Origin: an uncultured Muribaculaceae bacterium
Lineage (GTDB): Bacteria; Pseudomonadota; Alphaproteobacteria; Rs-D84
Assembly (NCBI GenBank): GCA_964619545.1
Contig: CAZUED010000003.1
Coordinates: forward strand, 163 to 64,162
Length of the DNA: 64,000 nucleotides
Reading direction: 5' to 3'
In this document: in pieces, positions 9,216 through 60,292 of the stretch
Numbering within the stretch: position 1 is the stretch's first letter
Layout: each line of letters begins with the position of its first letter
Notes under the pieces: generated by a model
The model's input: the letters and a program-made list of their open reading frames with translations, nothing else
What the model was told of the DNA's origin: nothing
Database searches by the model: none
Position numbers and translations under genes: made by a program

Positions 9216-10265
9216 ATGAAAAAACTAATACAATTTTTGTTCGGCCAATGTGCTGAAAAAACTACTGCCGGTGCGCTGGCTAAGAAATTTGGCATGGAGC
9301 TGCATGGTAATGCTTCGGTTCCAGTTCGTGGTGTTGCGCCTATTGCGGATGCAAAGCCCGGTGACTTGGCATTCTATTCAACCGAGAGAAATTCCGAAGC
9401 ATTCAAGATTTTACCGATTGAAACATTAAAAAATACCAAGGCATCGGTAATATTGGTACAAAAAGAAAATGTGAAATTTGCCCCAAAATGTGCAACTTTG
9501 CTGCTGACCGACAGCCCTCGCGCAAACATTATAAAAATCATAGGTGAAATTTATAAAGAAAAACCGCGACTGGGTGTTCATTGGGCTGCTAATATAGAGC
9601 ATGGGGTATTTTTCCGTAAACGCCGAAGTGTTTATGTTAGTCAGTTTGCAACTATTGAAAAGGGTGCGGTGATAGAACAGGGGGTGAAAATTTATCCGGG
9701 GGCTTTCATCGGTCGCGGTGTGGTGCTGGGGACTGGAACAATCGTTCATACTGGTGCACATATTGAAAATGCCACCATTGGTGCGAATTGTGTAATTCAC
9801 AGCGGTGCTGTTATTGGCAAGGAAGGATTTGGATATACGCGTCAAAATGGTAAGAATGTATTTATTCCGCACGTTGGTCGCGTGGTTATCGGGGATCGCG
9901 TTTCTGTTGGTGCAAATTCTTGCATAGATCGCGGAATGATGACAGATACAACCATTGGGGCTGGAACAAAGATTGATAACTTGATTCAGATTGCGCATGG
10001 CGTTGTTATAGGTCAAGAGTGTTTTTTAGCCGCAGGCGTTGGTCTGGCCGGTGGGGTTGTAATTGGCGACAGGGCAATGATTGGCGGTCATGTTGGAATT
10101 GCCAATGGTGTTAAAGTTGGTGATGATGCTGAAATAGGCGCGCAAAGTGGTGTTTTTCGCGATATTCCAGCGGGCGAGCGTCATATGGGCTATCCCGCAG
10201 TTCCGGGGATGGAATTTATGCGCGCTCATGCATGGGTCAAGAAAAACATGAGGGATAAGAAATGA
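9216..10265 (+). CDS. lpxD: UDP-3-O-acylglucosamine N-acyltransferase
   Basis: Left-handed beta-helix hexapeptide repeats and an LpxD N-terminal region. Overlaps fabZ by 4 nt. Confidence 0.95.
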   Translation: MKKLIQFLFGQCAEKTTAGALAKKFGMELHGNASVPVRGVAPIADAKPGDLAFYSTERNSEAFKILPIETLKNTKASVILVQKENVKFAPKCATLLLTDSPRANIIKIIGEIYKEKPRLGVHWAANIEHGVFFRKRRSVYVSQFATIEKGAVIEQGVKIYPGAFIGRGVVLGTGTIVHTGAHIENATIGANCVIHSGAVIGKEGFGYTRQNGKNVFIPHVGRVVIGDRVSVGANSCIDRGMMTDTTIGAGTKIDNLIQIAHGVVIGQECFLAAGVGLAGGVVIGDRAMIGGHVGIANGVKVGDDAEIGAQSGVFRDIPAGERHMGYPAVPGMEFMRAHAWVKKNMRDKK

Positions 10266-10690
10266 TGGTAGATACAAAGGGTGTAGAAGCTGTAATTCCA
10301 CATCGCGGCAATATGAGATTGGTGGATGAAATTCGCGAATTTAATGAAATCAGTGGTGTTGGTATAAAACATGTCAGGGATGATGAATTTTGGTGTGCCG
10401 GACATTTTCCCGGAAATCCGATAATGCCTGGTGTTTTACAGGTCGAGGCCTTGGCGCAAACTGCATGCTTTATTGTGTTCAAGCAAATGGGTGCAACAGG
10501 TAAGGACACTTTGGGCTATTTTACCACTATGGAAAAAATCAGATTTTCGCACATGGTAAAACCTGGCGATACGCTTGAATTGCATGTAGAAATTTTGGCA
10601 AAAAAATTAAACATGTATAAATTTCATGGAATTGCAATGGTTGGCGGGAAAAAAGTTTCCGAGGCTACATTTTCCGCAATCATGAATTAA
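10262..10690 (+). CDS. fabZ: 3-hydroxyacyl-ACP dehydratase
   Basis: Hotdog-fold motifs (HFPGNPIMPGVL). Confidence 0.95.
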   Translation: MMVDTKGVEAVIPHRGNMRLVDEIREFNEISGVGIKHVRDDEFWCAGHFPGNPIMPGVLQVEALAQTACFIVFKQMGATGKDTLGYFTTMEKIRFSHMVKPGDTLELHVEILAKKLNMYKFHGIAMVGGKKVSEATFSAIMN

Positions 10691-48378: not shown

Positions 48379-48419
48379 AAATTAGAATAAATAAAACGCG
48401 GCGGTTGCCGCGTTTTATT

Positions 48420-48704
48420 TTATCACTGCTGATTTTATCAAGGATAAGTCTTCTTTAATTCCGTCTATTTTTAATTGCAGCTGACCAATACCCGATTCCA
48501 GAATTGTTGTTCTGTTTTCCAGCGTGGTTATGCGGGCATCAGATTTTTTATTTTTTCCATCTCTTCGTTTGACAGCATAGATTGCATATCAAATGCAGCT
48601 GCAATAAAAGATTGTTCTTGAATATCGTATGGGTTGGAAGTTTTTTTGTCAGCCAATTTCTTTTCAACAACTGCTATCAATTCTTTTTTATGTTTTTCAA
48701 ACAT
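48420..48704 (-). pseudogene. Disrupted coiled-coil protein gene, interrupted in a poly-A run
   Basis: MFEKHKKELIAVVEKKLADKK...EKIKN (58 aa) stops inside GAAAAAATAAAAAAT. The open frame continues in another frame (ITTLENRTTILESGIGQLQLKIDGIKEDLSLIKSAVIK). There is also an upstream in-frame TGA. Confidence 0.35.
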
Positions 48705-48819
48705 CCGAGTGGCATTTATAGATTCTGCAACTTTTTTTCAATCATCTGTAAGCACTAATGGCATAATTCATCCTTTGTAGTACAGGTCAATTATACTTTT
48801 AAATAATGAGTTTTCAATA

Positions 48820-49656
48820 TTAAATCCTAAACTCGGTTTTTGCCTGGACGGGACGCAAAGTTTGACCAAGTGGACGAACCGGGGCTGCGTTCAGGTCCAG
48901 CGCCCCAGCAATCGCGTCCAGACCGTCATCGTGCCCCGAATCGCCCATCGGCGTCCAACCCAGCATTTCAGACAGCAATGGAGTCGCCTGAATTCTTTGG
49001 TGGGCCCAAATACGACCCGTCGTCAGTAGTGGCTCTACCGCGTTCAGAATCCGAGATTCCTTGCGCGTGTGATTTATGATTTTTTGGATAACAACAGATT
49101 GGTCGTGTTTTTTTGCGACTTCGCGCAAAATCTCGGGCAAGGCGTTTCCCAGCCCATTTACTTCTATCCCGATTATATGCGCGCCATGTATTTTCATAAA
49201 TCCCAAAACTTTCTCGCACTGAGTCGCCAGTGGATGCAAATCATTGTCATCCACAATCAAGTACCGAACATCATGAATAAATGCGCGCCGATTTTTATCG
49301 TCTCGGTAAAGCAAGACACATACACTGGAATCGGCCCCTTTACGCCCGCCTGATGGATCCCAATAGCACGATACGCCCGTTATCAAAAATTCTTTATCAA
49401 TTCCCAGTTTCGCTGTGCGAGCATCAAACTCTCCGTCATAAAAATAAAGCGCGCCTGGATCCAGCCGCGCTTTATCTTCCGAAATATATTCCAGCATCAT
49501 TTGACTGGAAAAATGACGTGGTCCGACCGTTTCCCTTAATTCTTCTATTTTTTCCAGTGGAAAAATATCTGGCCATGCAGGTATGCCGCCAGAATCAATT
49601 ATCGGTAGGCGGAATAATTGGTATCCGCGTAAAAATGGCAAGGTCTGTTCATTCAT
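48820..49656 (-). CDS. Phage terminase large subunit, C-terminal nuclease-domain fragment
   Basis: RNaseH-like nuclease motifs (CYWDPSGG..D...VLLY..D...RAFIHDV.YLIVDD, GHDDGLDA). Confidence 0.6.
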   Translation of the reverse strand: MNEQTLPFLRGYQLFRLPIIDSGGIPAWPDIFPLEKIEELRETVGPRHFSSQMMLEYISEDKARLDPGALYFYDGEFDARTAKLGIDKEFLITGVSCYWDPSGGRKGADSSVCVLLYRDDKNRRAFIHDVRYLIVDDNDLHPLATQCEKVLGFMKIHGAHIIGIEVNGLGNALPEILREVAKKHDQSVVIQKIINHTRKESRILNAVEPLLTTGRIWAHQRIQATPLLSEMLGWTPMGDSGHDDGLDAIAGALDLNAAPVRPLGQTLRPVQAKTEFRI

Positions 49657-49726
49657 GGGAAAATAAAAAAAACGCGCTATGCGCGTCTGTTTGATGCCTC
49701 AATTATATCAAATTTTTCATAAAAAA

Positions 49727-51268
49727 TCAATCTAAAAATGGAACGTCAGCCATATCAGGCACTTCGGCATTACCATTGCTTGCGCTAGCAGGTGCAGAAT
49801 AAGATGGTTCTTCCGATTGATAACCTTCATCCAAATCATCAAACAAAGAATATTCCCCACTGAATTTCAGTTTAATCGTTTCTGGTTTTCCATGACGATT
49901 TTTACCGATAATCAATTCGGCCTTACCGCGTGATGCGTCCAGACGCTTGCGCCAATTGTCTGCCTTGTTGGTTGTAAATTTTTCGGAATGGTCACCGACA
50001 ACATCAGATGGATCGCGACCCTGCAAGTAATACTCTTCACGATAAGTGAACATAACAATGTCGGCATCTTGTTCAATAGACCCAGATTCGCGCAAGTCCG
50101 ACAGCAATGGTCGTTTGTCATCGCGTGATTCGACTGCGCGGGAAAGCTGAGACAGCGCGATAACCGGCGCATCCAATTCCTTGGCCAACATTTTCAGACC
50201 CCGGGTGATTTCTGATAATTCATTAACACGGCTGTCGTTTTTACGAAGAGTTGGTGACTGCATCAACTGCAAATAATCGATAACGATAAGTGCAATACCG
50301 CCATGCTTACGGGCAATACGGCGTGCGCGTGCGCGCATCATAGGGACACTCATCCCCGGGGTATCATCAACCAGCAAAGGAACATTAGATAGTGCATCAG
50401 AATACTGCGACATCCGCAGAAACTCTTGATCATTCAGGCTGCCGTTACGCATAGAACTGGATGGAATTTTCGCCTGGGACGACAGAACGCGAGCCGCCAG
50501 TTGAGATGCTGACATTTCAAGGCTGAAAAACACGACCGCGCCACGATACTTTTTATTTGCGCGATTTGCCATAATTGCGCTGGCCGCGTTAAAGGCAATA
50601 TTCATCGCAACCGTGGTCTTTCCCATAGCAGGACGACCAGCAATTATTACCAAATCAGACTTGTGCAATCCGCTGATAGATTTATCCAAATCACGCAGAC
50701 CTGTGGTCAGACCCGATAATTTTCCATCGGCCTTATAAGCAATTTCGGCTTCTTCTAATGCAACGCGAAGTGCCGCCCCCAGTGGAGATGCCCCGCGGTC
50801 GGACGATCCGGTGGTGGATAAATCAAACAGTTTTTGTTCGGCTATTTCTATTTGTCTGTCTACCGGATTGTCTAAATCTTCGACAAATGCCGAATCGGTA
50901 ATGTTTTGACCTATATTAATCAGGTGACGCCGCAAAGCATTATCATAAACTATTTTGGCATAGCTTTCTATATTTACAACAGATGCGCCGGCACTCGCCA
51001 GTTCTGACAAATACTCGACCCCGCCGACAGAATCAAGAACACCTTGTTGTGTCAGATAGTTTTTTGCCGTAATGATGTCAAATGGGATTCCGGCGGCGAA
51101 TTGCTTTTCGGCAAGTTTAAAAATCTCTTGGTGGGCGGGATGAGTAAAATGTTCAGAGTGTAAAAAATCGCTGACTTTTTCCAGTGCGCGGTTGTTCATC
51201 AAGACTGCTGCCAGCACGGCTTGCTCAGCTTCCAAATTAGTCGGTAAAGACTTGGGAGTAAAATCCAT
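49727..51268 (-). CDS. dnaB: Replicative DNA helicase DnaB
   Basis: N-terminal domain (LEAEQAVLAAVLMN) and Walker A (AGRPAMGKTT). No intein. Confidence 0.95.
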   Translation of the reverse strand: MDFTPKSLPTNLEAEQAVLAAVLMNNRALEKVSDFLHSEHFTHPAHQEIFKLAEKQFAAGIPFDIITAKNYLTQQGVLDSVGGVEYLSELASAGASVVNIESYAKIVYDNALRRHLINIGQNITDSAFVEDLDNPVDRQIEIAEQKLFDLSTTGSSDRGASPLGAALRVALEEAEIAYKADGKLSGLTTGLRDLDKSISGLHKSDLVIIAGRPAMGKTTVAMNIAFNAASAIMANRANKKYRGAVVFFSLEMSASQLAARVLSSQAKIPSSSMRNGSLNDQEFLRMSQYSDALSNVPLLVDDTPGMSVPMMRARARRIARKHGGIALIVIDYLQLMQSPTLRKNDSRVNELSEITRGLKMLAKELDAPVIALSQLSRAVESRDDKRPLLSDLRESGSIEQDADIVMFTYREEYYLQGRDPSDVVGDHSEKFTTNKADNWRKRLDASRGKAELIIGKNRHGKPETIKLKFSGEYSLFDDLDEGYQSEEPSYSAPASASNGNAEVPDMADVPFLD

Positions 51269-51371
51269 GTCTCAAACCATACAACACGAATTTTAATTTG
51301 CAATGATTTTTCTTGCTTTGTTATAAAAAAAAAACTACTCTGTTTGTCAATAAGAACAAGAGGATTCAGTC

Positions 51372-52388
51372 ATGGCATGGGAAGAAATCTGTTTTCCAAA
51401 TAACCTTAGAAATATAAGGTTGTCGCGCGGAATGCGTATGACCGAAGTCGCCAAAAAATCCGGCCTTTCGCTGTCAGCAATGTCCAAGGTTGAAAAGGGG
51501 GTGCGCCGGTTAAAACAAAGTCAACTGATGCAGCTTTGCACAATTCTGGACTGCAAGTTGGCCGACATCTTTATAAAGGCTGACGATGAAAAGGCTACCA
51601 AATGGCAATCTGAAATGCAACGTCGCTTGACTGAAAATGAAACCGCTGGTTTGAAGGTATTTGGTGCGGGGATACGGGTTTTACGCCGTGAAGTTGGTAA
51701 GACTATCGCCCAGGCGGCCCATGATGCTAAGATGACGCTAAGCGTATATCACAAGATAGAAACTGGCCAGCGAGAGGTTTATGAAAACGAAATAGAAAAT
51801 TTGGCAAAGGCAATGGGTAAATCGATTGATGAAATGTTCAAGGCAATCGCAGGACTTTATAATTCTGGTGCGCTGAACAGACAAATCGACAAGGCCGAAG
51901 AACGTGTTCGCGAAGCGCTGAAAGTTGGTAAGTCCGAATCTAATTTAGATATGGGCAGCGCGATTTATGGCGCAACGGTTTATGATTCTGTGCGGAAAAA
52001 TTTGGTTCCGGTATATGGAACCGCGAATGGAAAAAATATAGTATTTATGAAATCTGATGACAATATGCTGCCACCATTGCCAAAGATAAAAAGCGGCAGT
52101 GGGATATATGCTGTTCAGGCACCTGCTGGTCGGTTGGGACCGCTGTTTCCGCACAAATCACATTTGCTTGCAAATCCTGGTATAATGCCTGTGGCTGGTG
52201 ATTTAGCGGTTTTGTTTGATGATGATTACGAAAATATCGAGCCTCGTACCCAGGCGACCGCACGGATTGTCATGCTGAAAGAGGATAAAAATGGCACGCT
52301 AATCGGTGTTCAGTCTTATCCAGAAGAGAAAATACAGATAAAGAACGGCAAAAAGCGACTGCATAAAATTGTGCAGATTGTCTGTTAA
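51372..52388 (+). CDS. XRE-family regulator with two HTH domains and an S24/LexA-like C-terminal domain (phage-repressor-like)
   Basis: Two HTH_XRE segments. The C-terminal beta-rich domain resembles the CI/LexA C-terminal domain, but no clear Ser-Lys dyad was found. Confidence 0.65.
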   Translation: MAWEEICFPNNLRNIRLSRGMRMTEVAKKSGLSLSAMSKVEKGVRRLKQSQLMQLCTILDCKLADIFIKADDEKATKWQSEMQRRLTENETAGLKVFGAGIRVLRREVGKTIAQAAHDAKMTLSVYHKIETGQREVYENEIENLAKAMGKSIDEMFKAIAGLYNSGALNRQIDKAEERVREALKVGKSESNLDMGSAIYGATVYDSVRKNLVPVYGTANGKNIVFMKSDDNMLPPLPKIKSGSGIYAVQAPAGRLGPLFPHKSHLLANPGIMPVAGDLAVLFDDDYENIEPRTQATARIVMLKEDKNGTLIGVQSYPEEKIQIKNGKKRLHKIVQIVC

Positions 52389-52411
52389 TAATTTGTAAAA
52401 TAGAGAGAGAA

Positions 52412-53047
52412 ATGAGAGAACTGACTTCCATAATAGCGCAGCGCTTGTTGAACTTGTATCGCCAGGCTCATGTGATTGATGGCGGCTGGGCAGCTGTTAA
52501 TAAGGCATTGTTGGCCGAGGCAGATAATGAAGTTCTGGCCGATTTGCAAAAATTGCCGAACGGGGGAAAGTTGGTTCAGCATATAAAAAATTTGCAATCT
52601 GGAAAAACGGAAGTCAGCGGAATAGAACGCGAAGTTATACCATATGGTGGTAAGATGGACAGCGCGGTAAAGGCAACGCAAATTTCCAACAAGGATTTGA
52701 AAGAGTTAGAATCTGCGCTGGCAGAATTTCAATCAGACGAAGAACATATTGAAAAAATTAAAAATTTATCATTTGTTCAATCTTTTGGTGAAAAGTGGAT
52801 TTCCGGGGTTCGGTCATCATTATCTGGCAAGCCAGAGTTAGAGAAAAAATGGCTTGAAGTTTCCAGATCCGCACGGGCATATGATTTATGGAATAAAGCC
52901 TATGCCGTTTTAATTCCGCCAGTTTCGGACAGAGCACGTGCCGAGATTCAGGCAGAATTATCTGAATATGAAACTTATCTGCCGATGTTTGGCGAAGACG
53001 GAACGCAACTTTTATCGCGACTCCGCTCATTTGTAAGCAGTTTGTAA
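52412..53047 (+). CDS. Hypothetical protein
   Basis: ORF followed by a terminator at 53048-53075. Confidence 0.5.
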   Translation: MRELTSIIAQRLLNLYRQAHVIDGGWAAVNKALLAEADNEVLADLQKLPNGGKLVQHIKNLQSGKTEVSGIEREVIPYGGKMDSAVKATQISNKDLKELESALAEFQSDEEHIEKIKNLSFVQSFGEKWISGVRSSLSGKPELEKKWLEVSRSARAYDLWNKAYAVLIPPVSDRARAEIQAELSEYETYLPMFGEDGTQLLSRLRSFVSSL

Positions 53048-53074
53048 AAAAAACGCGGTGGTTCCCCGCGTTTT

Positions 53075-53731
53075 TTAATTTTCAACCTTATAAATTGTGT
53101 CAACTGCATGTGGTGTGCCGATATAAATCATGGTGCCGCTAGGGGAAAGAATAAAGTCCAGTTCCCGCAGACGCATGCGTAACATTTCTCGTTTTTGAGA
53201 AGTATTGCTGGTGTTGGGAACTTCCACGTCATCGCAGATAATCATATCGGCGCGCTGACCTGTTATATTTCCATGAATACCTTGGCAGACTACAGAAGGT
53301 TCCCGAATTCCAACTTGGCGCGAGATTGTAATTTTATGCATTCCCCATTCTTTTTTAACGTTTGGCAATAAATCTCGGCATTCTGGATGATTTTCCAGAA
53401 TATGTTTTATATGTGACACCATTCTTGATGCCAGATTGGATTCTGCAGAAAGAATAAGTATACGTGTTTGTGGTCTTATAGAAAGTACCCATGCGGCGAA
53501 AATGCCAACAACTGATGATTTTCCTGAATGTCTAAATGCCAATAAAAGCGCCCGACGGGGCGGATTTTCAAGGCTGTTTACCAGAAATCTCAAAATGTTT
53601 TTATGATGTGTTGGTGTTTCCATTCCCAGTATCTGGTTCCATGCATCTAAAAAATTTTTCGCGGATTCATAAAGTTCCATAATCATCAATACTTTCACTG
53701 GGGCCTGTATCTGCCGGGGTTCCATAATCAT
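53075..53731 (-). CDS. Phage terminase large subunit, N-terminal ATPase-domain fragment
   Basis: Walker A-like RHSGKSS, Walker B IICDDVE and the coupling motif IGTP. The fragment ends right after the ATPase domain. Confidence 0.65.
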   Translation of the reverse strand: MIMEPRQIQAPVKVLMIMELYESAKNFLDAWNQILGMETPTHHKNILRFLVNSLENPPRRALLLAFRHSGKSSVVGIFAAWVLSIRPQTRILILSAESNLASRMVSHIKHILENHPECRDLLPNVKKEWGMHKITISRQVGIREPSVVCQGIHGNITGQRADMIICDDVEVPNTSNTSQKREMLRMRLRELDFILSPSGTMIYIGTPHAVDTIYKVEN

Positions 53732-54215
53732 TTATCATTCGCGGCATGGCAGTACTCAGCACTGATAAAAGATTATTATAAAGCCCCAGTGCAGCGCCTC
53801 CACCAGTTTTATCTTCTATTAATTCTTTAATGACATCCATCTGATGCACGACATTGTCATGAATATTTTGCCACTGGGCAATACTGATTTCAACTGAGTT
53901 TAAATCTCGGAAAGCCTCTAGTATAAAATTAAAATCTGCGTTCAGGTTTTCGGGATCAATTTTTGCAGCTGGCTGATAATCGATAAAGCGGGATAGACTT
54001 ATCTTGCGAAATATATCTATACGAGAATTTTGCACGGGTGGATTTGCAAAAGAAATTATTCCACCAATCATATTCTCATCATATTGCAAATTATATTCAG
54101 TAGAATCCAAAATAACTTCATTGATTGCCACATGAACGTCTAATGGCTGAAAAAAAGGAAAAGCAAAGGCAAAGCAATATGCTTCGCCGTCACCGACATA
54201 AGAAATCTTGTACAT
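53667..54215 (-). CDS. Hypothetical phage-associated protein
   Basis: ORF sitting between the structural genes and the terminase. Confidence 0.4.
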   Translation of the reverse strand: MYKISYVGDGEAYCFAFAFPFFQPLDVHVAINEVILDSTEYNLQYDENMIGGIISFANPPVQNSRIDIFRKISLSRFIDYQPAAKIDPENLNADFNFILEAFRDLNSVEISIAQWQNIHDNVVHQMDVIKELIEDKTGGGAALGLYNNLLSVLSTAMPRMINDYGTPADTGPSESIDDYGTL

Positions 54216-54232
54216 TTTATAACCTTTGTTTG

Positions 54233-54580
54233 TCAGGCAATCAATCCATCCAGTCTGGAAATGAATGATTTCAACAGATTGGATTTTGGTGTTTTTATTT
54301 TATAAAGCTTGTCCAGATTGGATTTCTTTTTTTCATCAAATGGTTCTTCGGTTTCTTCACGCAGTCTTTTCAGAACAGCCTCTTCGGTCATTCCTTTATT
54401 TGTCATTCCTGCGCTGCCGTATTTTGCACGTTGTGCGGCTAATGTTTTTTTTACCAGATTGATTTTTGCTTTTTCATCCGCCGCAATTTTTTCTAAAATT
54501 CTTTTTCGTTCTGACACGTTTTCTTTTTTGTCTTGTTTTTGATTTAAGATGTCTGTGACATCTGATACAAGTTGTCCCAT
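54233..54580 (-). CDS. Hypothetical protein (K/E-rich)
   Basis: ORF. Confidence 0.4.
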   Translation of the reverse strand: MGQLVSDVTDILNQKQDKKENVSERKRILEKIAADEKAKINLVKKTLAAQRAKYGSAGMTNKGMTEEAVLKRLREETEEPFDEKKKSNLDKLYKIKTPKSNLLKSFISRLDGLIA

Positions 54581-54590
54581 TTTTTTCTCC

Positions 54591-56315
54591 TTAGATTAAA
54601 TACCAGCCTTCTACTGATATGCCCAGTATGCTTACAGGTAATGGTTCGCTACCCGATATAGTCCAAAGAGGACAGGTAGTATCGTCAATTGTTCCCAATG
54701 AACCTACAGAAACATCTCCGCAGTATCCAGGCGAGTCTACACCAAGTGCATCATTTGGAAGTTGTGCACGAACTGCATTTATAAATAAAGATTTGGTATT
54801 CAGGCATCGTGCGGAAATTTTATGCACTCGAATTTTTTTCGGAGCTCGTCCACTGGCGAATAAAGGCATCGCAGCAGCCGTATGTGAAAATCCGAATTGA
54901 CCAGAATCAAGAGTTTCTGCTGCTGAAAATTTTTCTATGAATACGCCTGATTCGCGCGCGACTATTACAAATGTTTCACCATTCAGCACAGCGACAGATT
55001 TGAATGATCCCAGTGTTTTGTAGATGCCCCAGGCAGAAATTTCCAATGCCGAGTTTTTATTCAGTACTGCCATGGAACCATCTGTCATCACCACAAACAA
55101 CTGGCGTGTTTTATCATTATATGCCAGATCCACGGGATGCTTCATCAAGTGACCGGAAATCGCGCACAAGTTTGGTGCATTGTAGTTTTCACCTAACTCA
55201 TCCATAATCATTTCTCTGATTTCGTTGCCACCTTTGGAAACAAAAATAGTGCTGCGGTCTATCTTTTGTGGCTGCAGATAAATCGAAGAAATACTTCCTG
55301 CATTGGTATGTTGTCTGATGTCCATGGATGATGGAGTTAATGGTTTTGCGCTGATTGCCCATTCGCCTGCTGTGGTTAAAATTTGTAAATTATCGCTGGA
55401 TACAACCGTGCAAATTTGTTGGCGTGCAGATGAAAGCAGTGTCAGAAAAATGGCTTGGTCATCCAATCCTGTTTCAGCATTAAAGTTTTGATGATCACCA
55501 ACGCATGACATCCAAACCCCACATGGCCACGCGCGCGAACCCCCAAATACCAATCGGTCCTGATGAAAAGTGATGCTGCGTGGCCATCCGCGGCGGACAC
55601 CAAATGCGGCTTCGCGCCAATCAGAAATTGCCGCACTGGGCAGCGAGTAAGTTCCATTAGTGTATGCAACGATAGTGGTAGAATTTACATACTCGTAAAT
55701 GACCCATTGCTTACCCATCAAGTAAAGTCTGCCATTGAGATTTTCAGGTGTCCAAAAAGCGGCACTGGCAGTAAAAGTAGCATAGTTATTCCCATTCGCA
55801 TTACTTGATACAGAAATTTTTATACCAGCTGCATCGTCAAATTTCATAAATGGCATATTTCGTGACATATCATCGTTTGTTGAAAAATCAAATGTGGACA
55901 GATAAAACGCGCCACCTGTTTTTTTCAGAACTCGTGGCTGAAAATCCTGATGCACGAAAATCATGGTATCAAAACGTTGCGCATATTGCATGTTACACAA
56001 TGCATCCGCGCCCCAAGGCGAGATCAAGGCCTGGACCATATTCTGACCATCATAAATTTTCATCTGACCATCAGAAATAGCCAGCATATAATTTTCTGAA
56101 TCGGAAATAGAAAAAGGAATCAAAATTGCACCATTTTTTGTCGCAGCAATCCGAATTGTTCCATTCCGCCGTGAAATAGCCCCCGATGCCAAGACATCCA
56201 TATTTTCCATACGCGACAAGCCGCGGGATGAAACATCCAAATCACCACGCGCAAAAAATTCTGGCGATACTTCCCCCAATGCGAAAGAGTTCTGATTGTG
56301 AATAAATTTTCCCAT
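54591..56315 (-). CDS. Putative phage structural protein, positioned like T7 gp12 (tail tubular protein B)
   Basis: 574-aa beta-rich ORF immediately downstream of the gp11-like gene. Confidence 0.35.
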   Translation of the reverse strand: MGKFIHNQNSFALGEVSPEFFARGDLDVSSRGLSRMENMDVLASGAISRRNGTIRIAATKNGAILIPFSISDSENYMLAISDGQMKIYDGQNMVQALISPWGADALCNMQYAQRFDTMIFVHQDFQPRVLKKTGGAFYLSTFDFSTNDDMSRNMPFMKFDDAAGIKISVSSNANGNNYATFTASAAFWTPENLNGRLYLMGKQWVIYEYVNSTTIVAYTNGTYSLPSAAISDWREAAFGVRRGWPRSITFHQDRLVFGGSRAWPCGVWMSCVGDHQNFNAETGLDDQAIFLTLLSSARQQICTVVSSDNLQILTTAGEWAISAKPLTPSSMDIRQHTNAGSISSIYLQPQKIDRSTIFVSKGGNEIREMIMDELGENYNAPNLCAISGHLMKHPVDLAYNDKTRQLFVVMTDGSMAVLNKNSALEISAWGIYKTLGSFKSVAVLNGETFVIVARESGVFIEKFSAAETLDSGQFGFSHTAAAMPLFASGRAPKKIRVHKISARCLNTKSLFINAVRAQLPNDALGVDSPGYCGDVSVGSLGTIDDTTCPLWTISGSEPLPVSILGISVEGWYLI

Positions 56316-56842
56316 TAGAACCTCGTTGATATAAGTGAAAAGTCAGGTATGTCATTGCTGGGTGACACAGTGCTGTCTATGAATTTTGCCGCGCGCAGCT
56401 CGGATTCAAACAATGCTGCAATGGTGCGTAATAAATTCTGGTCGCCGGTCAATGGCATACAGAATTCCCGTGCAAGTTGCAATGCAGCGACATTTGAAAA
56501 ATATGAAGGATAATTTTCTGGTCCCATTCGCACAACAGCAGTGATTGAAATTTTATCGGCCGGTGCAGAAATTCTGTTCCCGCTAGTTTGATAAAGCAAG
56601 CAATCACAATCCAAAACACGAAGAATTTCTACTGGCAAAAGAAAATCACCATCTGTGGTCTTGCTTAAATTGAATTTTTTCTGGGCAAATTTCCACGGAT
56701 GCGACGCCAGCAAAGAATCAATCGTAGTATCAAATAGGGTCTTTGCGACTTTGGCTGCAGCACTATCGTCGTTAAAAGACTGAATGGGATTTTCACCAAT
56801 TTTCAATAAAGCAATAGAACACAGATCAATTTTAGTAAGCAT
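56315..56842 (-). CDS. Tail tubular protein A-like (T7 gp11-like)
   Basis: N-terminal pattern IALLKIGENPIQSFNDDSAAAKVAKTLFDTTIDSLLASHPWKF resembles the gp11 N-terminus (recalled from memory, not searched). Confidence 0.45.
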   Translation of the reverse strand: MLTKIDLCSIALLKIGENPIQSFNDDSAAAKVAKTLFDTTIDSLLASHPWKFAQKKFNLSKTTDGDFLLPVEILRVLDCDCLLYQTSGNRISAPADKISITAVVRMGPENYPSYFSNVAALQLAREFCMPLTGDQNLLRTIAALFESELRAAKFIDSTVSPSNDIPDFSLISTRF

Positions 56843-56865
56843 GGGGAACTCCTGACTTTTAACTT

Positions 56866-57150
56866 TTATGCCAAAGCACTGGTTGTTACATTCTGGGATG
56901 TGATGTTAATTTTTTTGATTACGGTGTTGTCGGAAGCATTGATAATTACAATGTCGCCAATATTCATCAAAGTGCGGACCGGATTAAAAAAACCAGTAGT
57001 ACTGATGGTCGCAATACTTTCTTGGGCGGCATAGTGCCACAGAGTAAATCCATTTGCATACGCAATAACGGACAAGTTTTTGTTTTGGAAATACATGAAA
57101 AACTCCATTGTTTGAGGGATGAAGGAGGAAGTTTGAGGTAAAAAAATCAA
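56866..57150 (-). CDS. Hypothetical phage protein
   Basis: ORF between the capsid and tail-tube genes. Confidence 0.35.
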   Translation of the reverse strand: MIFLPQTSSFIPQTMEFFMYFQNKNLSVIAYANGFTLWHYAAQESIATISTTGFFNPVRTLMNIGDIVIINASDNTVIKKINITSQNVTTSALA

Positions 57151-57188
57151 TAAAACTAAAACCTAATCCTTCATCCCTCATTCTTTAA

Positions 57189-58004
57189 TTATTCGGCGCA
57201 ATTGATTTTGACGATCCCGTCCTGATCAATCAGCACGCTGCCCTGGGACATGCTGTTGCTGATAAAGTGCGCAGCGCGTTCGCCATTCCAAAAGATGTCA
57301 GATTTGACTTCTTGGCCACATGCATGACCGATAGCGGACGAGTGATACATAAAGCACTTACGCATATTGGTACCGGTTGGCAGGCCGTTATGCATAATCC
57401 AATTGATGCCCAACCACTTACGCAGTTCGAATCCACCAATCAAAGGTGTTTCGTTGCCGACGTATTCAGCCGAAACGAATTCATCCATAGACAAAAGCTC
57501 ATTCCACTGATGAACACCGACGACGCAGAATCTGCGACCATCGTCAGGAACGTCTTTAGAGTTCAATGCTTCGACCGCGGACAAAATAATTTCTTTGGTC
57601 AAAGCGGCAGTTCCATCTCCGACAGCGGTTGTTGCATTGGCCATAGATGTTATAATCAGCTCGTCAGTCTTGCGACCCAATGCATATGCACCTGCGCTTG
57701 CGACAACCCGACGTTCATCAATGTTGATTTTTAATTCATCCAAAGCATCAACCCAATCGCCCGCATAATAGTCCTGCAATACGCATTCAACAGGCTCGTG
57801 GTCCAAGTTCATGACAGGAACTAATCCGTGGCGAGATTTGGTAGTGGCAGTACCACGACCAACTTTTTGGAAAGTTGTACTGCTGCCTATAACGCCGGAT
57901 TTACTGCGTATTGTGTTGCGAAGCTTTGTCCCCATTTGTTGATAAGCAAGATGAACATCGGCCTCGAATTGTTTTACGAATATCTGGTCTATTGATTCAG
58001 ACAT
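57189..58004 (-). CDS. Major capsid protein, T7 gp10-like
   Basis: Several local pattern matches to gp10 as recalled (FVKQFEADV..., RRFCVVG, FMYHSSAIG). Strong RBS AAAGGAGA. Confidence 0.5.
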   Translation of the reverse strand: MSESIDQIFVKQFEADVHLAYQQMGTKLRNTIRSKSGVIGSSTTFQKVGRGTATTKSRHGLVPVMNLDHEPVECVLQDYYAGDWVDALDELKINIDERRVVASAGAYALGRKTDELIITSMANATTAVGDGTAALTKEIILSAVEALNSKDVPDDGRRFCVVGVHQWNELLSMDEFVSAEYVGNETPLIGGFELRKWLGINWIMHNGLPTGTNMRKCFMYHSSAIGHACGQEVKSDIFWNGERAAHFISNSMSQGSVLIDQDGIVKINCAE

Positions 58005-58311
58005 AGTTTCTCCTTTTTGATTGAAAAAAACCGGACATTATTGTCCGGTCATAAATAATTTGTTTTTCAGGTTCCGCGCAAAAGCGCGCCGTAAAAACAA
58101 ATATGCGGGTTCGTCAGAATTGTATGTCTTTTTCTGATGCTATGTTTTGCCTTATTATATACCAATTGTCCTTAAATCCGTTTTAGTGGTAGTTGCGAGA
58201 AAACAGCACATTACAGCACTTCATAGGTTGTAATGGGGCATTTTAGCACTAGAAAAGCGGTAATAAAAAATCCCGCTTTGCGGGATTTTTTATTTCAATA
58301 ATGTAATTACA

Positions 58312-58800
58312 TTATTTCTTTTTAGCAACTGGCTTTTTCGCCGGGGCTTTCTTAGCAACAGGCTTTTTAGCAGCTGGTTTTTTCGCAGCTGGCTTTTTCG
58401 CCGGGGCTTTCTTAGCGACAGGCTTTTTGGCAACCGGCTTTTTAACCGCAACTTTCTTAGCAGCAGGTTTTTTAGCAGCAGGTTTTTTAGCAGCAGGTTT
58501 CTTTGCCATTGGCTTTTTAGCAACAGGTGCTTTTACTGCCAATTTCATAACTTTTTTTGCAGCTGGTTTTTTTGCTGGAGCTTTCTTAGCAACAGGCTTT
58601 TTAGCGGCAACTTTTTTTACAGCTGGTTTTTTTGCAACTGCTTTTTTCACAGCTGGTTTTTTAGCAGCAGGTTTTTTAGCAGCTGGTTTTTTTACAACGG
58701 GCTTTTTAGCAGCTGGTTTTGCAGTTGCTTTCTTTGCCGCTGGTTTCAAGAATGAAAATGCCATTCTCTTCTCCTTCCTTTTTTTGTTTTTATAGAACAA
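58312..58800 (-). CDS. Histone H1-like Lys/Ala-rich protein (AKKP-type tandem repeats)
   Basis: About 25 PAAKK/PVAKK repeats and strong DNA-level tandem periodicity. An alternative start exists at M13 (58764). Confidence 0.7.
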   Translation of the reverse strand: MFYKNKKRKEKRMAFSFLKPAAKKATAKPAAKKPVVKKPAAKKPAAKKPAVKKAVAKKPAVKKVAAKKPVAKKAPAKKPAAKKVMKLAVKAPVAKKPMAKKPAAKKPAAKKPAAKKVAVKKPVAKKPVAKKAPAKKPAAKKPAAKKPVAKKAPAKKPVAKKK

Positions 58801-58876
58801 AAAATTTTTGTTCTTGATTACATTTTATCTGAAACAAAAAAATTAGTAAAGCGAAAAGAAAAAAATTACATAAAAT

Positions 58877-59575
58877 TTATGAATATAATTTTTTGAAACC
58901 AGTTTCTATTTTACGAATATATTCTGAATCATGATCACGCCAATATTTTGGATCTTTCATCATGTTGCGTAATTCATTATCAGATAGTTTTTCTGATGCA
59001 TGATTTCCAGTTGCAACATCTGGTTCCATTGATTGCATCATTTTATAAATGCTTTGGATTCCCTGGGGTGTAGAGCACAATGACTCAAATGCATCAGATG
59101 GTAAAAACTTTTCACCGAATGCATTGATAGCCTGCATGGCATCTTTCATCTTTTCTTCGCTACCGAAAAAATTTTGTAATGTGGCGATTGATTCTGACTG
59201 GGCGCGCAAAGAGAAAATTTCTGACAATGCTGGGGATAAAAATTCTTCAGCTATCGAATAAATTTTTTCAACTTGCTTTGGAGTCAATCCTGCATCAAAA
59301 AATTTTTTGCGAATCGTTTCATCATCAAACATCGGATTTGATGGATATTCGTCAGCAGTCTTTGGAACCCCCAATGTGCGCATAAATTTTTCACGTGAAT
59401 TTTCGTCGGCATCTTCGCCTGGGATGGATACCATGGTCCCGATTTTCTTTTCCAGTTCGGAATAAGACTTAATCAAAGCATCGCTGTTTAATGTTCCATC
59501 ATCGTTTTGGAATTTTTCTGGAATTTGCATTCTTTCCCCTTTGAGTTGATTTGCGTAAGAAATATATCCCCGCAA
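58877..59575 (-). CDS. Putative scaffolding protein (acidic, helical), in the gp9-like position
   Basis: Inferred from composition and its position upstream of the capsid gene. Confidence 0.35.
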   Translation of the reverse strand: MRGYISYANQLKGERMQIPEKFQNDDGTLNSDALIKSYSELEKKIGTMVSIPGEDADENSREKFMRTLGVPKTADEYPSNPMFDDETIRKKFFDAGLTPKQVEKIYSIAEEFLSPALSEIFSLRAQSESIATLQNFFGSEEKMKDAMQAINAFGEKFLPSDAFESLCSTPQGIQSIYKMMQSMEPDVATGNHASEKLSDNELRNMMKDPKYWRDHDSEYIRKIETGFKKLYS

Positions 59576-59720
59576 GAGTAAAAATTGAATTCATAGTCGT
59601 AAAAACATTTTCATCACCAACAAGATATGCCGTGATTGCGGATAAAATTCCAACGCCGGAAATTATGTAAGTCCGTTGTCCTGCAAAGAATCCGCCACTT
59701 AAAATTTTTGACATTCGCAT
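59499..59720 (-). CDS. Small two-TM protein, a possible holin
   Basis: 73 aa with two hydrophobic segments and a charged C-terminus. Adjacent to the cell-wall hydrolase. Confidence 0.3.
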   Translation of the reverse strand: MRMSKILSGGFFAGQRTYIISGVGILSAITAYLVGDENVFTTMNSIFTLAGIYFLRKSTQRGKNANSRKIPKR

Positions 59721-59737
59721 AAAAAACTCCGTTCAGG

Positions 59738-60190
59738 TTATTTATAGAAAAGCAGCCCATCAATATCTGCAATACTTCCTTTATCTGTTGCCCAATCTGG
59801 CAAAATGTCTTCGCGATGAAATCGAACTGCGCTACGAACAGAATCAGGCAGTTTCCCATTAATCATTCTTTTTAAGACACGCAAACACATTTGGAATTTT
59901 GGGTCATCTTCGGAAATTAAAAGATCGCTGTGGCGGGAAGATTCTTTTTGCAAACATTCAAATAAAGATTCGTCCGCTGCAATACAAGAAAAAGGCTGCA
60001 TAGATTGTTGATAAATATTTCCAATCATAGACGCCATGGCTTCAACCGCTGGCAAACTTGACGTGCGCGTTTCGGCATAAATAATTTTTCCCAGTTGGAC
60101 AAGTATTGTTTTTTCATCCTGAAACTCATTACGAGGCATTGTTTGCATTCGGACTTCCTTTGTATAAGAAAGACCCGCGCAGCAATGCAC
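59738..60190 (-). CDS. Cell wall hydrolase, SleB/Hydrolase_2 family
   Basis: AETRTSSL...QFSC...RFHREDILPDWA pattern. Confidence 0.65.
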   Translation of the reverse strand: MHCCAGLSYTKEVRMQTMPRNEFQDEKTILVQLGKIIYAETRTSSLPAVEAMASMIGNIYQQSMQPFSCIAADESLFECLQKESSRHSDLLISEDDPKFQMCLRVLKRMINGKLPDSVRSAVRFHREDILPDWATDKGSIADIDGLLFYK

Positions 60191-60292
60191 GGGTCAAAAT
60201 AACATAAAAAAAACGCGCATGGGCGCGATTAAATTTTTATTGTTTGATAGATTAATCATATCACAAAATCACAAAAAAAGCAACAAGAAAAA

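Follow-up and report, generated by a model that had tools for sequence, protein, structure and literature searches.

To our knowledge, only a handful of independently domesticated gene transfer agent (GTA) lineages exist, and the well-studied alphaproteobacterial ones all descend from siphovirus-like ancestors. The RcGTA-type GTAs of Rhodobacter and Caulobacter (Rhodogtaviriformidae) are chromosomal, vertically inherited sets of head, tail, and packaging genes that are kept under purifying selection, have no replication or integration genes, and go back to an HK97-like siphovirus. Control by transcription termination and antitermination is known for the Caulobacter GTA (bioRxiv 10.1101/2023.11.12.565669). 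From the gut, FpGTA of Faecalibacterium prausnitzii (Firmicutes), is a proposed podovirus-like element supported by packaged-DNA data and studied with a capsid-packaged long-read method; its authors call it both the earliest example of a podovirus-like GTA and the earliest GTA from the human gut (Nat Commun 2026, PMC12946183). Legionella phage LME-1 and marine phage Carin-1, which provide the closest solved capsid, adaptor, and nozzle (PDB 9EG4, 9EFK, and 8CK1), are complete and infectious; their genes run capsid, decoration, adaptor, nozzle, and they have a T7-like tail complex, full-length fibers and, in LME-1, a T=7 head. Uncultured podophages with a PF19821 capsid include the IMG/VR contigs L102 and L179 and Pelagibacter phage EXVC031P; those of the L102/L179 type carry a single 498-aa large terminase (TerL), contiguous portal, Bbp19, scaffold, and capsid genes, and a 614-aa fiber plus further large ORFs.

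The locus described here is shared by genomes of Candidatus Enterousia (order Rs-D84), a clade with reduced genomes of 0.75 to 1 Mb (PMC12306168). It resembles the RcGTA type in being alphaproteobacterial, chromosomal, vertically inherited, under purifying selection, and free of replication and integration genes, but its ancestry is that of a T7-like podovirus, it has no tail tube or tape-measure genes, and it is set apart by a split terminase, an H1-like gene in the head module, and a nested essential host gene. A terminator-containing leader before its capsid gene may be compared with the control of the Caulobacter GTA. Like FpGTA it is a GTA-like element of a gut bacterium, although of independent origin, from Alphaproteobacteria, and with evidence only from sequence. 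In the literature that we searched, no phage-like element of Enterousia or Rs-D84 is described. We consider it probable that Candidatus Enterousia and related Rs-D84 gut Alphaproteobacteria share a set of genes from a T7-like podovirus that is passed on vertically and maintained by selection, most likely with a GTA-like role, and that the copy in the window (the whole 64,000-nucleotide stretch of DNA analyzed) has recently become portal-less.

Within the window, the element extends over ~48389 to 60190, with dnaB and two other host genes inside (Table 1). A previous sequence-only reading had described it as a T7-like remnant at 53075 to 60190, between dnaB and birA. Its minus-strand ORFs are all real, nearly all of the identities that it proposed (hydrolase, scaffold, H1-like protein, capsid, tube A, nozzle, and terminase) were recovered by profile searches, and the T7-like architecture of the structural module is backed by T7 Pfam families for the scaffold, tube A, and terminase nuclease. 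The boundaries have to be redrawn: since the C-terminal half of the terminase lies on the far side of dnaB, the element starts ~4.7 kb further out, and dnaB is enclosed within the split terminase gene rather than flanking the module.

Table 1. Features of the locus in the window (coordinates refer to the 64-kb stretch)
Feature	Coordinates	Strand	Evidence
Deletion scar at the place of portal, Bbp19, and neighbors	48389..48809	-	tblastn, homology breakpoints, reading frames
Terminase large subunit, C-terminal lid and nuclease half (TerL-C)	48820..49656	-	phrog_38 positions 270-458 belong to TerL-N; here phrog_38 positions 481-710, 5e-39; PF22530 T7 RNaseH-like
Enclosed host DNA, three genes	49727..53047	.	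Same three genes, same place, 80+ loci
Replicative helicase dnaB	49727-51268	-	NF006606 607 bits (cutoff 540)
Double-HTH regulator	51372-52388	+	Within split terminase
211-aa protein (p211)	52412-53047	+	Within split terminase
Terminase large subunit, N-terminal ATPase half (TerL-N)	53075..53731	-	phrog_38 positions 270-458, 1e-40; PF03237
Truncated tail fiber, N-terminal tail-attachment domain and short C-terminus	53667..54215	-	Weak phrog tail-fiber N-terminus matches
Basic coiled-coil protein, 115 aa, small-internal-virion-protein position	54233..54580	-	Position only
Tail tubular protein B/nozzle (T7 gp12-type)	54591..56315	-	phrog_376 9e-83
Tail tubular protein A/adaptor (T7 gp11-type)	56315..56842	-	PF17212 7.6e-5 (above cutoff); phrog_394 5e-33
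Small ORF, head-decoration position	56866..57150	-	phrog_18004 8e-10
Major capsid protein (HK97 fold family PF19821)	57189..58004	-	PF19821 5e-69; phrog_3437 9e-73
Structured leader of capsid gene	58023..58110	-	Fold z-score -3.4; covariation
Lys/Ala/Pro-rich histone-H1-like protein	58312..58800	-	PF07382 2e-21
Scaffold (T7 gp9-type capsid assembly protein)	58877..59575	-	PF05396 "Phage T7 capsid assembly protein" 5e-9; phrog_3742 8e-15
Basic 73-aa small membrane protein, holin position	59499..59720	-	Hydrophobic window residues 17-35; pI 11.1
Cell-wall hydrolase (endolysin-like)	59738..60190	-	PF07486 E 0.0025 (weak); phrog_938 endolysin 4e-6

The modular order is that of the late region of T7 and the Autographiviridae (genes 8 to 12, 17, and 19), with T7-type scaffold, adaptor, nozzle, and large terminase, the latter split; a T7 Pfam family was also found for the portal of the relatives, while the T7-type portal (gp8, PF12236) is not in the 64-kb window. 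The phage RNA polymerase and gp14-16 core proteins of T7 have no counterpart in the element. Neither the window nor its relatives have an ORF for a single-subunit RNA polymerase at the locus or next to it. Ejection or core proteins (gp14-16) were not identified either, as the earlier reading had remarked for the core proteins, with only a 115-aa ORF and a 182-aa fiber stub between nozzle and terminase. An Autographiviridae prophage was rejected as an identification, the capsid matching no T7-group phage by tblastn and phage RNA polymerase, integrase, and replication genes being absent.

The two terminase halves tile T7 gp19 without overlap, TerL-N (37% identical to the Autographiviridae gp19 of >2,700 phage records) aligning to residues 1 to ~225 and TerL-C to residues ~228 to 540. 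Their lengths (218 and 278 aa) match the unsplit TerL of the phage-like contig L102, and most of the nearest cluster representatives are themselves full-length terminases (450 to 515 aa). What had been called the terminase is thus a terminase, but only its ATPase half, the nuclease half being found beyond dnaB. The Walker A motif is conserved in 78 of 78 loci and the nuclease Asp motifs in 83 of 83; the two-polypeptide terminase is a putative working enzyme. As to the enclosed genes, DnaB scores below the phage_DnaB cutoff and is of the cellular alphaproteobacterial type, and a pair of HTH and p211-like genes is likewise present in a gut contig that is unrelated and carries no phage genes.

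At the birA end, where a terminator-like hairpin follows birA (60172-60195), the SleB-like hydrolase of the earlier reading was recovered; its start is likely at 60148, giving 136 aa as in relatives and as called in the near-identical strain L096. The next protein, described before as having two transmembrane segments, shows one strong hydrophobic segment and a second that is only weak, and an ORF of 73 to 79 aa is kept at this holin position in relatives. The scaffold predicted from its acidic helices likely starts at 59530 (217 aa, against 217 to 218 aa in relatives). The H1-like protein, also anticipated, has its likely start at 58764 (MAFSFLKPAAKK...) and scores below the cutoffs of NF038053 and NF038052. 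All 53 loci whose sequence spans the gap from scaffold to capsid have a corresponding ORF in it, whereas the phage relatives have none and space the two genes by ~55 nt; the H1-like gene is an insertion specific to the domesticated element.

The capsid contains both peptides, FMYHSSAIG and RRFCVVG, by which it had been recognized, and has ~3,900 homologues, the best 120 at 71 to 92% identity. The capsid call was confirmed, but at the level of tblastn its T7 affinity was not: of 50,697 phage records, 118 were matched (Vibrio, Pelagibacter, and others), the tallied organism and host names including no classical T7-group phage, and the matches are to Pelagibacter, Vibrio, and Legionella LME-1-type podophages (7e-28 to PDB 9EG4 of LME-1, T=7). 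A T=7 head, as in this closest solved capsid, could hold more DNA than the ~15-kb locus, so that the hallmark of classical GTAs, a head without room for the genes that encode it, may not apply. The leader consists of a long stem around an invariant GGC...AUAACC, a terminator-like hairpin (58029-58050) with a U-run, and then the RBS. In 62 sequences, 95% of cells were paired, compared with 22 to 47% when the alignment was slid, and double changes numbered 26 against 5.7 in shuffles. The motif occurs once per locus, is not found in the phage relatives, and matched no Rfam family at threshold. The ORF after the capsid, listed before at 94 aa, likely starts at 57096 (76 aa); it is conserved in 75+ loci (dN/dS of 0.11) and weakly matches the LME-1 decoration protein 9EG4_H (E of 0.037).

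Both tail tubular proteins had been assigned correctly. The adaptor matches the connector 8CK1_E (1.7e-8) and the adaptor 9EFK_T, and the 574-aa nozzle matches the "Tail Nozzle" of 8CK1 (6.5e-31) and 9EFK_M and, aligned end to end, shares 29% identity with the 634-aa L102 nozzle. The 115-aa coiled-coil protein had no family match in profile searches; it is conserved (dN/dS of 0.24), and the ORF at the same position in L179 matches phrog_418, "internal virion protein," with no direct similarity found between the two. By position it is a putative, unproven small internal virion protein. The tail fiber was said to be absent and the full-length fiber is indeed gone, but one of the two small ORFs is an N-terminal stub (182 aa), residues 3 to 95 of which match the N terminus of the 614-aa L179 fiber (E of 2e-9).

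Overall, the gene set of the PF19821 podophages (capsid, post-capsid ORF, adaptor, nozzle, portal, and Bbp19) is matched, portal and Bbp19 only in relatives of the window. Identities to L102, L179, and EXVC031P are 46 to 66% for the capsid, 32 to 43% for the portal, 42 to 49% for Bbp19, and 42 to 49% and 32 to 38% for the two terminase halves, and the scaffold, adaptor, and nozzle belong to the same families. An autonomous viral organization is absent: host genes split the terminase, the portal and scaffold blocks do not adjoin, and early genes are lacking. LME-1 and Carin-1, with which the order capsid, decoration, adaptor, nozzle is shared, are complete, and the L102/L179-type phages lack the H1-like gene, the leader motif, and host genes in the module.

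The locus with the same split terminase was found in >80 species-level genomes of Candidatus Enterousia (~0.75 to 1 Mb). A portal scan gave relatives in 165 stretches of species-representative genomes, and the 80 loci fetched came from MAGs assigned to Enterousia, Alphaproteobacteria, or Rickettsiales, one of them a closed chromosome of 958 kb. Gene order is uniform (capsid ... TerL-N, p211, HTH, dnaB, TerL-C, portal, Bbp19, and an 86-aa gene, p86), also in 30+ capsid-ascertained IMG/VR loci, and ORFs are intact, with median lengths agreeing across 75 to 86 loci. The dN/dS comparison of capsid and tube genes proposed by the earlier reading revealed purifying selection, with values of 0.05 to 0.24 over all genes (NG86: capsid, 0.076; portal, 0.062; nozzle, 0.09; TerL-N, 0.12; TerL-C, 0.11; dnaB, 0.053), which are approximate because many pairs are close to saturation in dS. 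Conservation of the capsid exceeds that of DnaB and BamA, with a dN ratio of capsid to dnaB of 0.81. For capsid, portal, nozzle, and TerL-C, divergence between pairs of loci is correlated with that of dnaB (Spearman, 0.6 to 0.8), and divergence of the element correlates with the independent host marker BamA (0.80 to 0.86).

Both terminase halves and the portal are thus selected as strongly as the capsid, an argument for a function that includes DNA packaging. This weighs against a domesticated particle whose selected effect is something other than random delivery of host DNA to kin, such as killing or adhesion, transport of the H1-like protein or of some other cargo, or the packaging and export of particular DNA, and all domesticated head-plus-tail-plus-terminase sets that we know of are GTAs. 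We regard such a particle as unlikely, even though the fiber stub and the lack of ejection proteins make injection of DNA in the manner of a phage doubtful, a conserved clade-specific H1-like protein sits inside the head module, and the probable T=7 ancestry implies a head that is not obviously undersized.

The window itself carries an incomplete particle gene set, portal and Bbp19 being absent from its 64 kb by tblastn. In their place, the scar consists of a unique stretch of ~260 bp that contains a 58-aa ORF (48528-48704), a 5'-truncated p86 remnant (48418 to ~48609, only residues 20 to 86 found by tblastn), and the terminal terminator (48389-48420). Homology to the nearest species (L094, 86% nucleotide identity, portal present) stops at 48810, and homology to the sister L182, where the interval is intact, restarts at 48550, indicating a deletion of ~3.3 kb that removed portal and Bbp19 and truncated the next gene. 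The same junction is found in the independently assembled, 99.8%-identical strain L096, whose 47-kb contig also lacks both genes, and no portal of the window strain is among the top database homologues listed. The absence of a portal noted earlier is therefore real for the window but a lineage-specific deletion and not a property of the element: all 30 capsid-ascertained loci reaching that far keep the portal, a 407-aa PF12236 (T7-type) protein ~100 aa shorter than in LME-1/Carin-1-type phages. The portal is indispensable for packaging. Unless one is encoded elsewhere, the window copy is probably not able to package DNA at present. Selection on the genes that are left is not relaxed (dN/dS of 0.05 to 0.14 against L094, with no lengthening of the window branch), so the loss must have happened recently. 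Neighboring lineages have lost other blocks, L085 having no adaptor, nozzle, fiber, or TerL-N at the locus and L087 no TerL-C or portal nearby, so that, at least within the sub-clade of the window, the system can be lost or moved elsewhere.

These losses, together with the missing early, replication, integration, and ejection genes of a phage, might suggest a functionless, decaying prophage remnant that persists for lack of time or because dnaB, being essential, shields the region from large deletions. Linkage to dnaB is no barrier to point mutations and frameshifts, however, and every remaining ORF is intact in >80 species, with low dN/dS throughout, a capsid more conserved than DnaB and BamA, and conserved catalytic motifs in both terminase halves; unused DNA would not be expected to last in genomes of this size, and we judge a remnant of this kind quite improbable. 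Between the two options of the earlier reading, decayed or domesticated, the latter is the right one at clade level, decay applying only to the missing portal of the window and to a few neighboring lineages. An active or recently active temperate podophage that integrates beside birA and carries dnaB is very hard to sustain, despite all hallmark morphogenesis genes being present in most species and many such loci being listed as viral contigs in IMG/VR, given that no integrase, excisionase, replication initiator, polymerase, primase, or RNAP was found in or beside the locus among the ORFs of the window and its relatives, that DnaB is cellular, that the terminase is interrupted in every species, that divergence tracks BamA, and that genuine phage relatives are organized differently, with an unsplit terminase.

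A domesticated, podovirus-derived particle system, and as such a candidate gene transfer agent, is the best reading. Its head, tail, and packaging genes are resident and vertically inherited, the structural genes are under purifying selection, and there is no replication, integration, or lysogeny module; no small terminase was identified. We infer the GTA function from conservation alone. In its complete form the element encodes two lysis proteins, the scaffold and capsid together with a small decoration-like protein, the adaptor, the nozzle, a short fiber, a large terminase as two polypeptides (ATPase half and lid/nuclease half), a portal of reduced length, Bbp19, and one small membrane/coiled-coil protein. 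Relative to its phage ancestor it has lost the integration, replication, and transcription genes, most of the fiber, and the large ORFs that follow the fiber in phage relatives, and has gained the H1-like Lys-rich protein gene and the structured, terminator-containing leader. A subset of cells may express the particle genes, with read-through of the leader terminator gating capsid expression; podovirus-like heads would be assembled and loaded with host DNA by the two-piece terminase, and producer cells would lyse and deliver DNA to sister cells.

More tentatively, and with somewhat less than even confidence, we propose that Rs-D84/Candidatus Enterousia harbors an unrecognized GTA family, independently domesticated from a T7-like podovirus, with a two-polypeptide terminase around an essential dnaB operon, a histone-H1-like head-module protein possibly packaged with or condensing the DNA, and a riboswitch-like or antitermination leader gating capsid synthesis, three features not known in any GTA. 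The locus is a convenient marker of Enterousia in metagenomes. Although chromosomal, such loci are already being classed as viral contigs by virus-prediction pipelines (IMG/VR). If the proposal is true, this would be a second, unrelated T7-like GTA domestication, fixed in an entire order of uncultured symbionts with reduced genomes from the guts of humans and livestock, and would add to the evolutionary routes by which GTAs are known to arise. The element would also provide a natural experiment on whether a viral packaging motor works with its ATPase and nuclease as separate proteins and a concrete reason why ~1-Mb genomes keep ~12 kb of phage genes, and the particles may be the main route of recombination in these ~0.9-Mb genomes.

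The minus-strand ORFs that the sequence-only reading had listed at 53075-60190 are all present, and profile searches bore out the identities proposed for them (see the table). Their base composition is that of the remaining window. The ORF taken for the terminase does match one, although only as a fragment corresponding to the ATPase half (TerL-N). Because the lid-nuclease half (TerL-C) sits beyond dnaB, this set of podovirus-derived head, tail and packaging genes spans ca. 48389-60190 and encloses dnaB, so that of the two flanking genes originally proposed only birA is a flank. The T7 affinity holds for the scaffold, the Tube adaptor and the terminase, but not for the capsid, which belongs to another family and matched no T7-group phage in a tblastn search of phage records. 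The tail fibre, described as absent, keeps its N-terminal attachment domain; most of the rest is gone.

Features of the element in the window, with the dN/dS obtained across relatives
Feature	Position	Strand	Size, match or context	dN/dS
Endolysin	within 53075-60190	-	weak SleB/Hydrolase_2-like match	
Basic membrane protein		-	73 aa; beside endolysin	
Scaffold		-	Pfam "Phage T7 capsid assembly protein," 5e-9	
HC2/H1-like protein	58312-58800	-	Lys/Ala/Pro-rich; profile match 2e-21	
Capsid leader	58023-58110	-	directly upstream of capsid gene	
Capsid		-	PF19821, 5e-69	0.076
Small ORF after capsid		-	phrog_18004	
Adaptor (T7 "Tube")		-	phrog_394, 5e-33	0.19
Nozzle		-	574 aa; phrog_376, 9e-83; PDB 8CK1 "Tail Nozzle," 6.5e-31	0.09
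Small ORF		-	115 aa; between nozzle and TerL-N	0.24
Small ORF		-	182 aa; between nozzle and TerL-N	
TerL-N		-	218 aa; phrog_38 positions 270-458, 1e-40	0.12
p211		+	211-aa unknown protein; between TerL halves	
Double-HTH regulator		+	338 aa; between TerL halves	
dnaB	49727-51268	-	between TerL halves	0.053
TerL-C	48820-49656	-	278 aa; phrog_38 positions 481-710; T7 terminase RNaseH-like domain	0.11
Portal			in relatives	0.062

In alignment, TerL-N and TerL-C tile Berlinvirus gp19 (residues 1 to ~225 and ~228 to 540) with neither overlap nor gap, and the Walker A, Walker B and coupling motifs of the former, like the nuclease acidic motifs of the latter, are kept in essentially all loci. The split is the derived state, since the 50%-identity cluster representatives nearest to TerL-N are mostly full-length terminases (450 to 515 aa). 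The DnaB separating the two halves is not a phage helicase, as it scores above the cutoff of the NCBIfam cellular equivalog NF006606 (607 versus 540 bits) and below that of phage_DnaB, and its best PDB relatives are cellular DnaBs. The database search gave no phage homologue of p211. A double-HTH homologue (36% identity) and an 804-aa protein with a p211-like N terminus adjoin each other in the gut contig MT835708.1 (11310-15289), beside TrbL/VirB6-like (type IV secretion-like) and M23 peptidase genes; this record, labelled "Bacteriophage sp.," is an unrelated contig of higher GC with no phage genes near the pair. Both results argue against the regulator and p211 being phage genes, and the two appear to form a more widespread pair of host genes. 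Given the cellular type of the DnaB and this recurrence outside phages, the three enclosed genes are host DNA interrupting the terminase gene. Nothing suggests that the gene is rejoined by programmed excision or inversion, or the protein through a split intein: direct or inverted repeats at the flanks are no larger than expected by chance, there is no recombinase, and neither half has an intein-sized extension, which leaves no room for a split intein.

The orientation of dnaB varies: it is inverted in the window, its near-identical strain (L096), the nearest species (L094) and L089 compared to Enterousia proper and L085, in which dnaB (16714-18273 in L002), the HTH gene and p211 are codirectional and look like a single operon. 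At the end of the window dnaB (49670-49730), a promoter-like TTGATT-17-TATAAT with TG precedes a bidirectional terminator-like hairpin located immediately ahead of the TerL-C start, the second promoter-then-terminator arrangement within the element.

TerL-N shares 37% identity with gp19 of classical T7-group phages (~2,750 records), which TerL-C matches weakly. No T7-group phage was matched by the capsid in the search of phage records; matches were found instead to Pelagibacter phage EXVC031P (46%), 32-kb Vibrio podophages (33%) and a human-gut contig (64%). The closest solved capsid structure is that of Legionella phage LME-1 (T=7), in which portal, adaptor, nozzle and fibre make up a T7-like tail complex. 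The element falls outside Autographiviridae, with no RNAP, no core proteins and a different capsid family, and its nearest relatives are uncultured PF19821-capsid podophages. Phage-like IMG/VR contigs with 55 to 66% identical capsids present the ancestral layout. One of them (L102) has a single TerL of 498 aa (the two halves in the element add up to 496), followed in turn by a hydrolase, the portal (505 aa), Bbp19, scaffold, capsid, an ORF of 85 aa, adaptor and nozzle (634 aa); in another (L179), the nozzle is followed by a small "internal virion protein," the fibre (614 aa), more large ORFs and then TerL. Compared to these phages, the element has a split TerL, a portal missing ~60 C-terminal residues and some loops, a fibre reduced to its attachment domain, none of the large post-fibre ORFs or early genes, and an insertion of ~0.7 kb separating the scaffold and capsid genes.

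ORF lengths are uniform over 75 to 86 loci. We calculated dN/dS by the Nei-Gojobori method (NG86) for locus pairs with dS of <1.2, leaving out the TerL-N value against L089, which was an extraction artefact. This comparison across relatives, suggested by the sequence-only reading, returned for the capsid a value indicative of purifying selection, the pattern of domestication. Over all pairs, capsid dN was 0.81 times that of dnaB, and the pairwise divergence of structural genes followed that of dnaB (Spearman 0.6 to 0.8). Since dnaB is inside the locus, the test was redone with BamA, which is outside, and the correlations were 0.80 for both capsid and portal, 0.84 for nozzle, 0.86 for TerL-C and 0.88 for dnaB, with capsid p-distances below those of BamA. 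The pattern of selection and descent is that of a domesticated element and fits neither a prophage in decay nor a phage still in circulation. The module had been called decayed or domesticated, and at clade level only the second term fits the intact uniform ORFs, the low dN/dS and the BamA-correlated divergence. Domestication is well supported at class level.

The capsid has ~3,900 database homologues, the best 120 of which (71 to 92% identity) come from MAGs named "Alphaproteobacteria/Rickettsiales bacterium," the longest contig measuring 887 kb. When species-representative genomes were scanned with the portal, 165 stretches encoding a relative were obtained. Of the 80 fetched for comparison, most go by the name Candidatus Enterousia or uncultured Alphaproteobacteria, with the guts of humans, mice, chickens, pigs, horses and ruminants as their sources, and a closed chromosome of 958,618 bp is among them. 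Enterousia belongs to the order Rs-D84, with member genomes of ~0.75 to 1.0 Mb (PMC12306168). The order, identical in all these loci, is birA; hydrolase, 73-aa protein, scaffold, H1-like protein, capsid, ~76-aa ORF, adaptor, nozzle, 115-aa ORF, 182-aa ORF and TerL-N; then p211, HTH and dnaB; then TerL-C, portal (407 aa, PF12236), Bbp19 (PF25181) and an 86-aa gene; and, on the far flank, (DUF4223) and yraN. More than 30 IMG/VR "viral" loci, ascertained by capsid and not by portal, have the identical organisation, and every one extending beyond TerL-C has the portal. These entries (L104 to L150) are chromosomal Enterousia loci catalogued as viral contigs, a systematic provirus false positive; many are trimmed to begin exactly at the capsid gene, dnaB included. 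The peptidoglycan hydrolases in or beside the element differ by lineage (GH108-like, phage lysozyme PF00959, or a Mu-F-like plus PG-binding protein; sites at L019 12197-13054, L089 10688-, L095 13926-14447 and L182 1261-1761), which suggests that the component for lysis or wall digestion can be exchanged.

All 53 loci covering the scaffold-capsid gap encode a Lys/Ala/Pro/Val-rich, histone H1/HC2-like protein of highly variable length (38 to 167 aa) with a conserved start, MAF(T/S)FLKPAAKK; the gene is absent from the phage relatives. Its stop codon is followed by a terminator and then by a conserved leader, which immediately precedes the capsid gene in every Enterousia-type locus (e.g., L002 9900-10000). 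The leader consists of a long U-rich/A-rich stem around an invariant GGC...AUAACC and a short inner helix, then a terminator-like GC hairpin carrying a U-run, and the capsid RBS. Among 62 distinct sequences the inner helices were 95% paired, versus 22 to 47% with the partner slid, and 26 double-sided changes were observed versus 5.7 in shuffles, none of 500 shuffles being as high. Each locus has a single copy of the motif, which the phage relatives lack, and no Rfam family reached the gathering threshold, which argues against a known RNA family. The leader is thus a candidate new cis-regulatory RNA, which might gate capsid expression through terminator read-through. Enterousia loci (L002 ~9850-9900, L019 and L033) carry between the H1-like terminator and the leader an additional ~13-nt inverted repeat (TCAGTnnGAT ... 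ATCnnACTGA), missing from the sub-clade of the window, that could serve as an operator or form another hairpin. A 1.75-kb contig (L098, ERR15663783) has a capsid identical to that of the window followed by a same-strand 133-aa ORF in place of the 76-aa ORF and the adaptor, and may represent another structural variant or a misassembly.

The portal was correctly reported as missing: tblastn with a relative's portal found nothing in the 64-kb window. Bbp19 is absent too, and all that is left of the 86-aa gene is a remnant, truncated at the 5' end, that runs to the terminal terminator. A relocated copy in this strain was not apparent in the protein database either, where the best homologues all came from other species, the 91% match being in the canonical context of the sister species. 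The L096 contig, which comes from a separate sequencing run and matches the window at 99.8% identity across 16.8 kb, shares its junction. In L094 (86% nucleotide identity; capsid, 92%) and L089, the portal is directly 3' of TerL-C, and the intact interval in the sister species (L182) contains portal, lysozyme, 131-aa and 129-aa ORFs, Bbp19, an 81-aa ORF, DUF4223 and yraN. Homology of the window to L094 ends at 48810 and homology to L182 restarts at 48550, so ~3.3 kb was replaced by ~260 bp of unrelated sequence; the absence of portal and Bbp19 is a real deletion. All remaining genes have dN/dS of 0.05 to 0.14 against L094 (dS 0.4 to 0.7, TerL-C excepted), and with L089 as the outgroup the window branch is not longer than that of L094. 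Relaxed selection following the loss was not seen in this comparison; hence either the loss is recent or something elsewhere in the genome compensates for it. TerL-C is much more diverged from its L094 counterpart (9553-10389; dS 1.29, 81% amino acid identity) than its neighbours (87 to 94%), which hints at a recombination event beside the portal deletion. Two other members of this sub-clade have gaps of their own: the L085 locus is without adaptor, nozzle, fibre and TerL-N, and L087 lacks TerL-C, dnaB and portal nearby.

The element can be likened to known gene transfer agents (GTAs). It is unrelated to RcGTA, BaGTA and the recently described FpGTA, which its 2026 paper presents as the first podovirus-like GTA (PMC12946183). 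Full-text searches of the literature on Enterousia, Rs-D84 and T7-like or podovirus GTAs turned up no published account of this element. When complete, it encodes a procapsid set (scaffold, capsid and portal), a T7-type tail stub (adaptor, nozzle and short fibre), a two-piece packaging enzyme and lysis functions, all of them held under purifying selection at a locus passed on by vertical descent. From this we infer a putative GTA: podovirus-like particles would be assembled from its genes, host DNA would be packaged into them, and they would be set free by lysis. The H1-like protein might, speculatively, condense the DNA or be co-packaged with it, and any role of the HTH regulator is likewise speculative. 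Given the missing portal, present-day function in the window genome is unlikely. Where the element is complete, DNA uptake would depend on functions of the recipient, since it has no ejection proteins and little of the fibre; RcGTA also relies on recipient functions for uptake.
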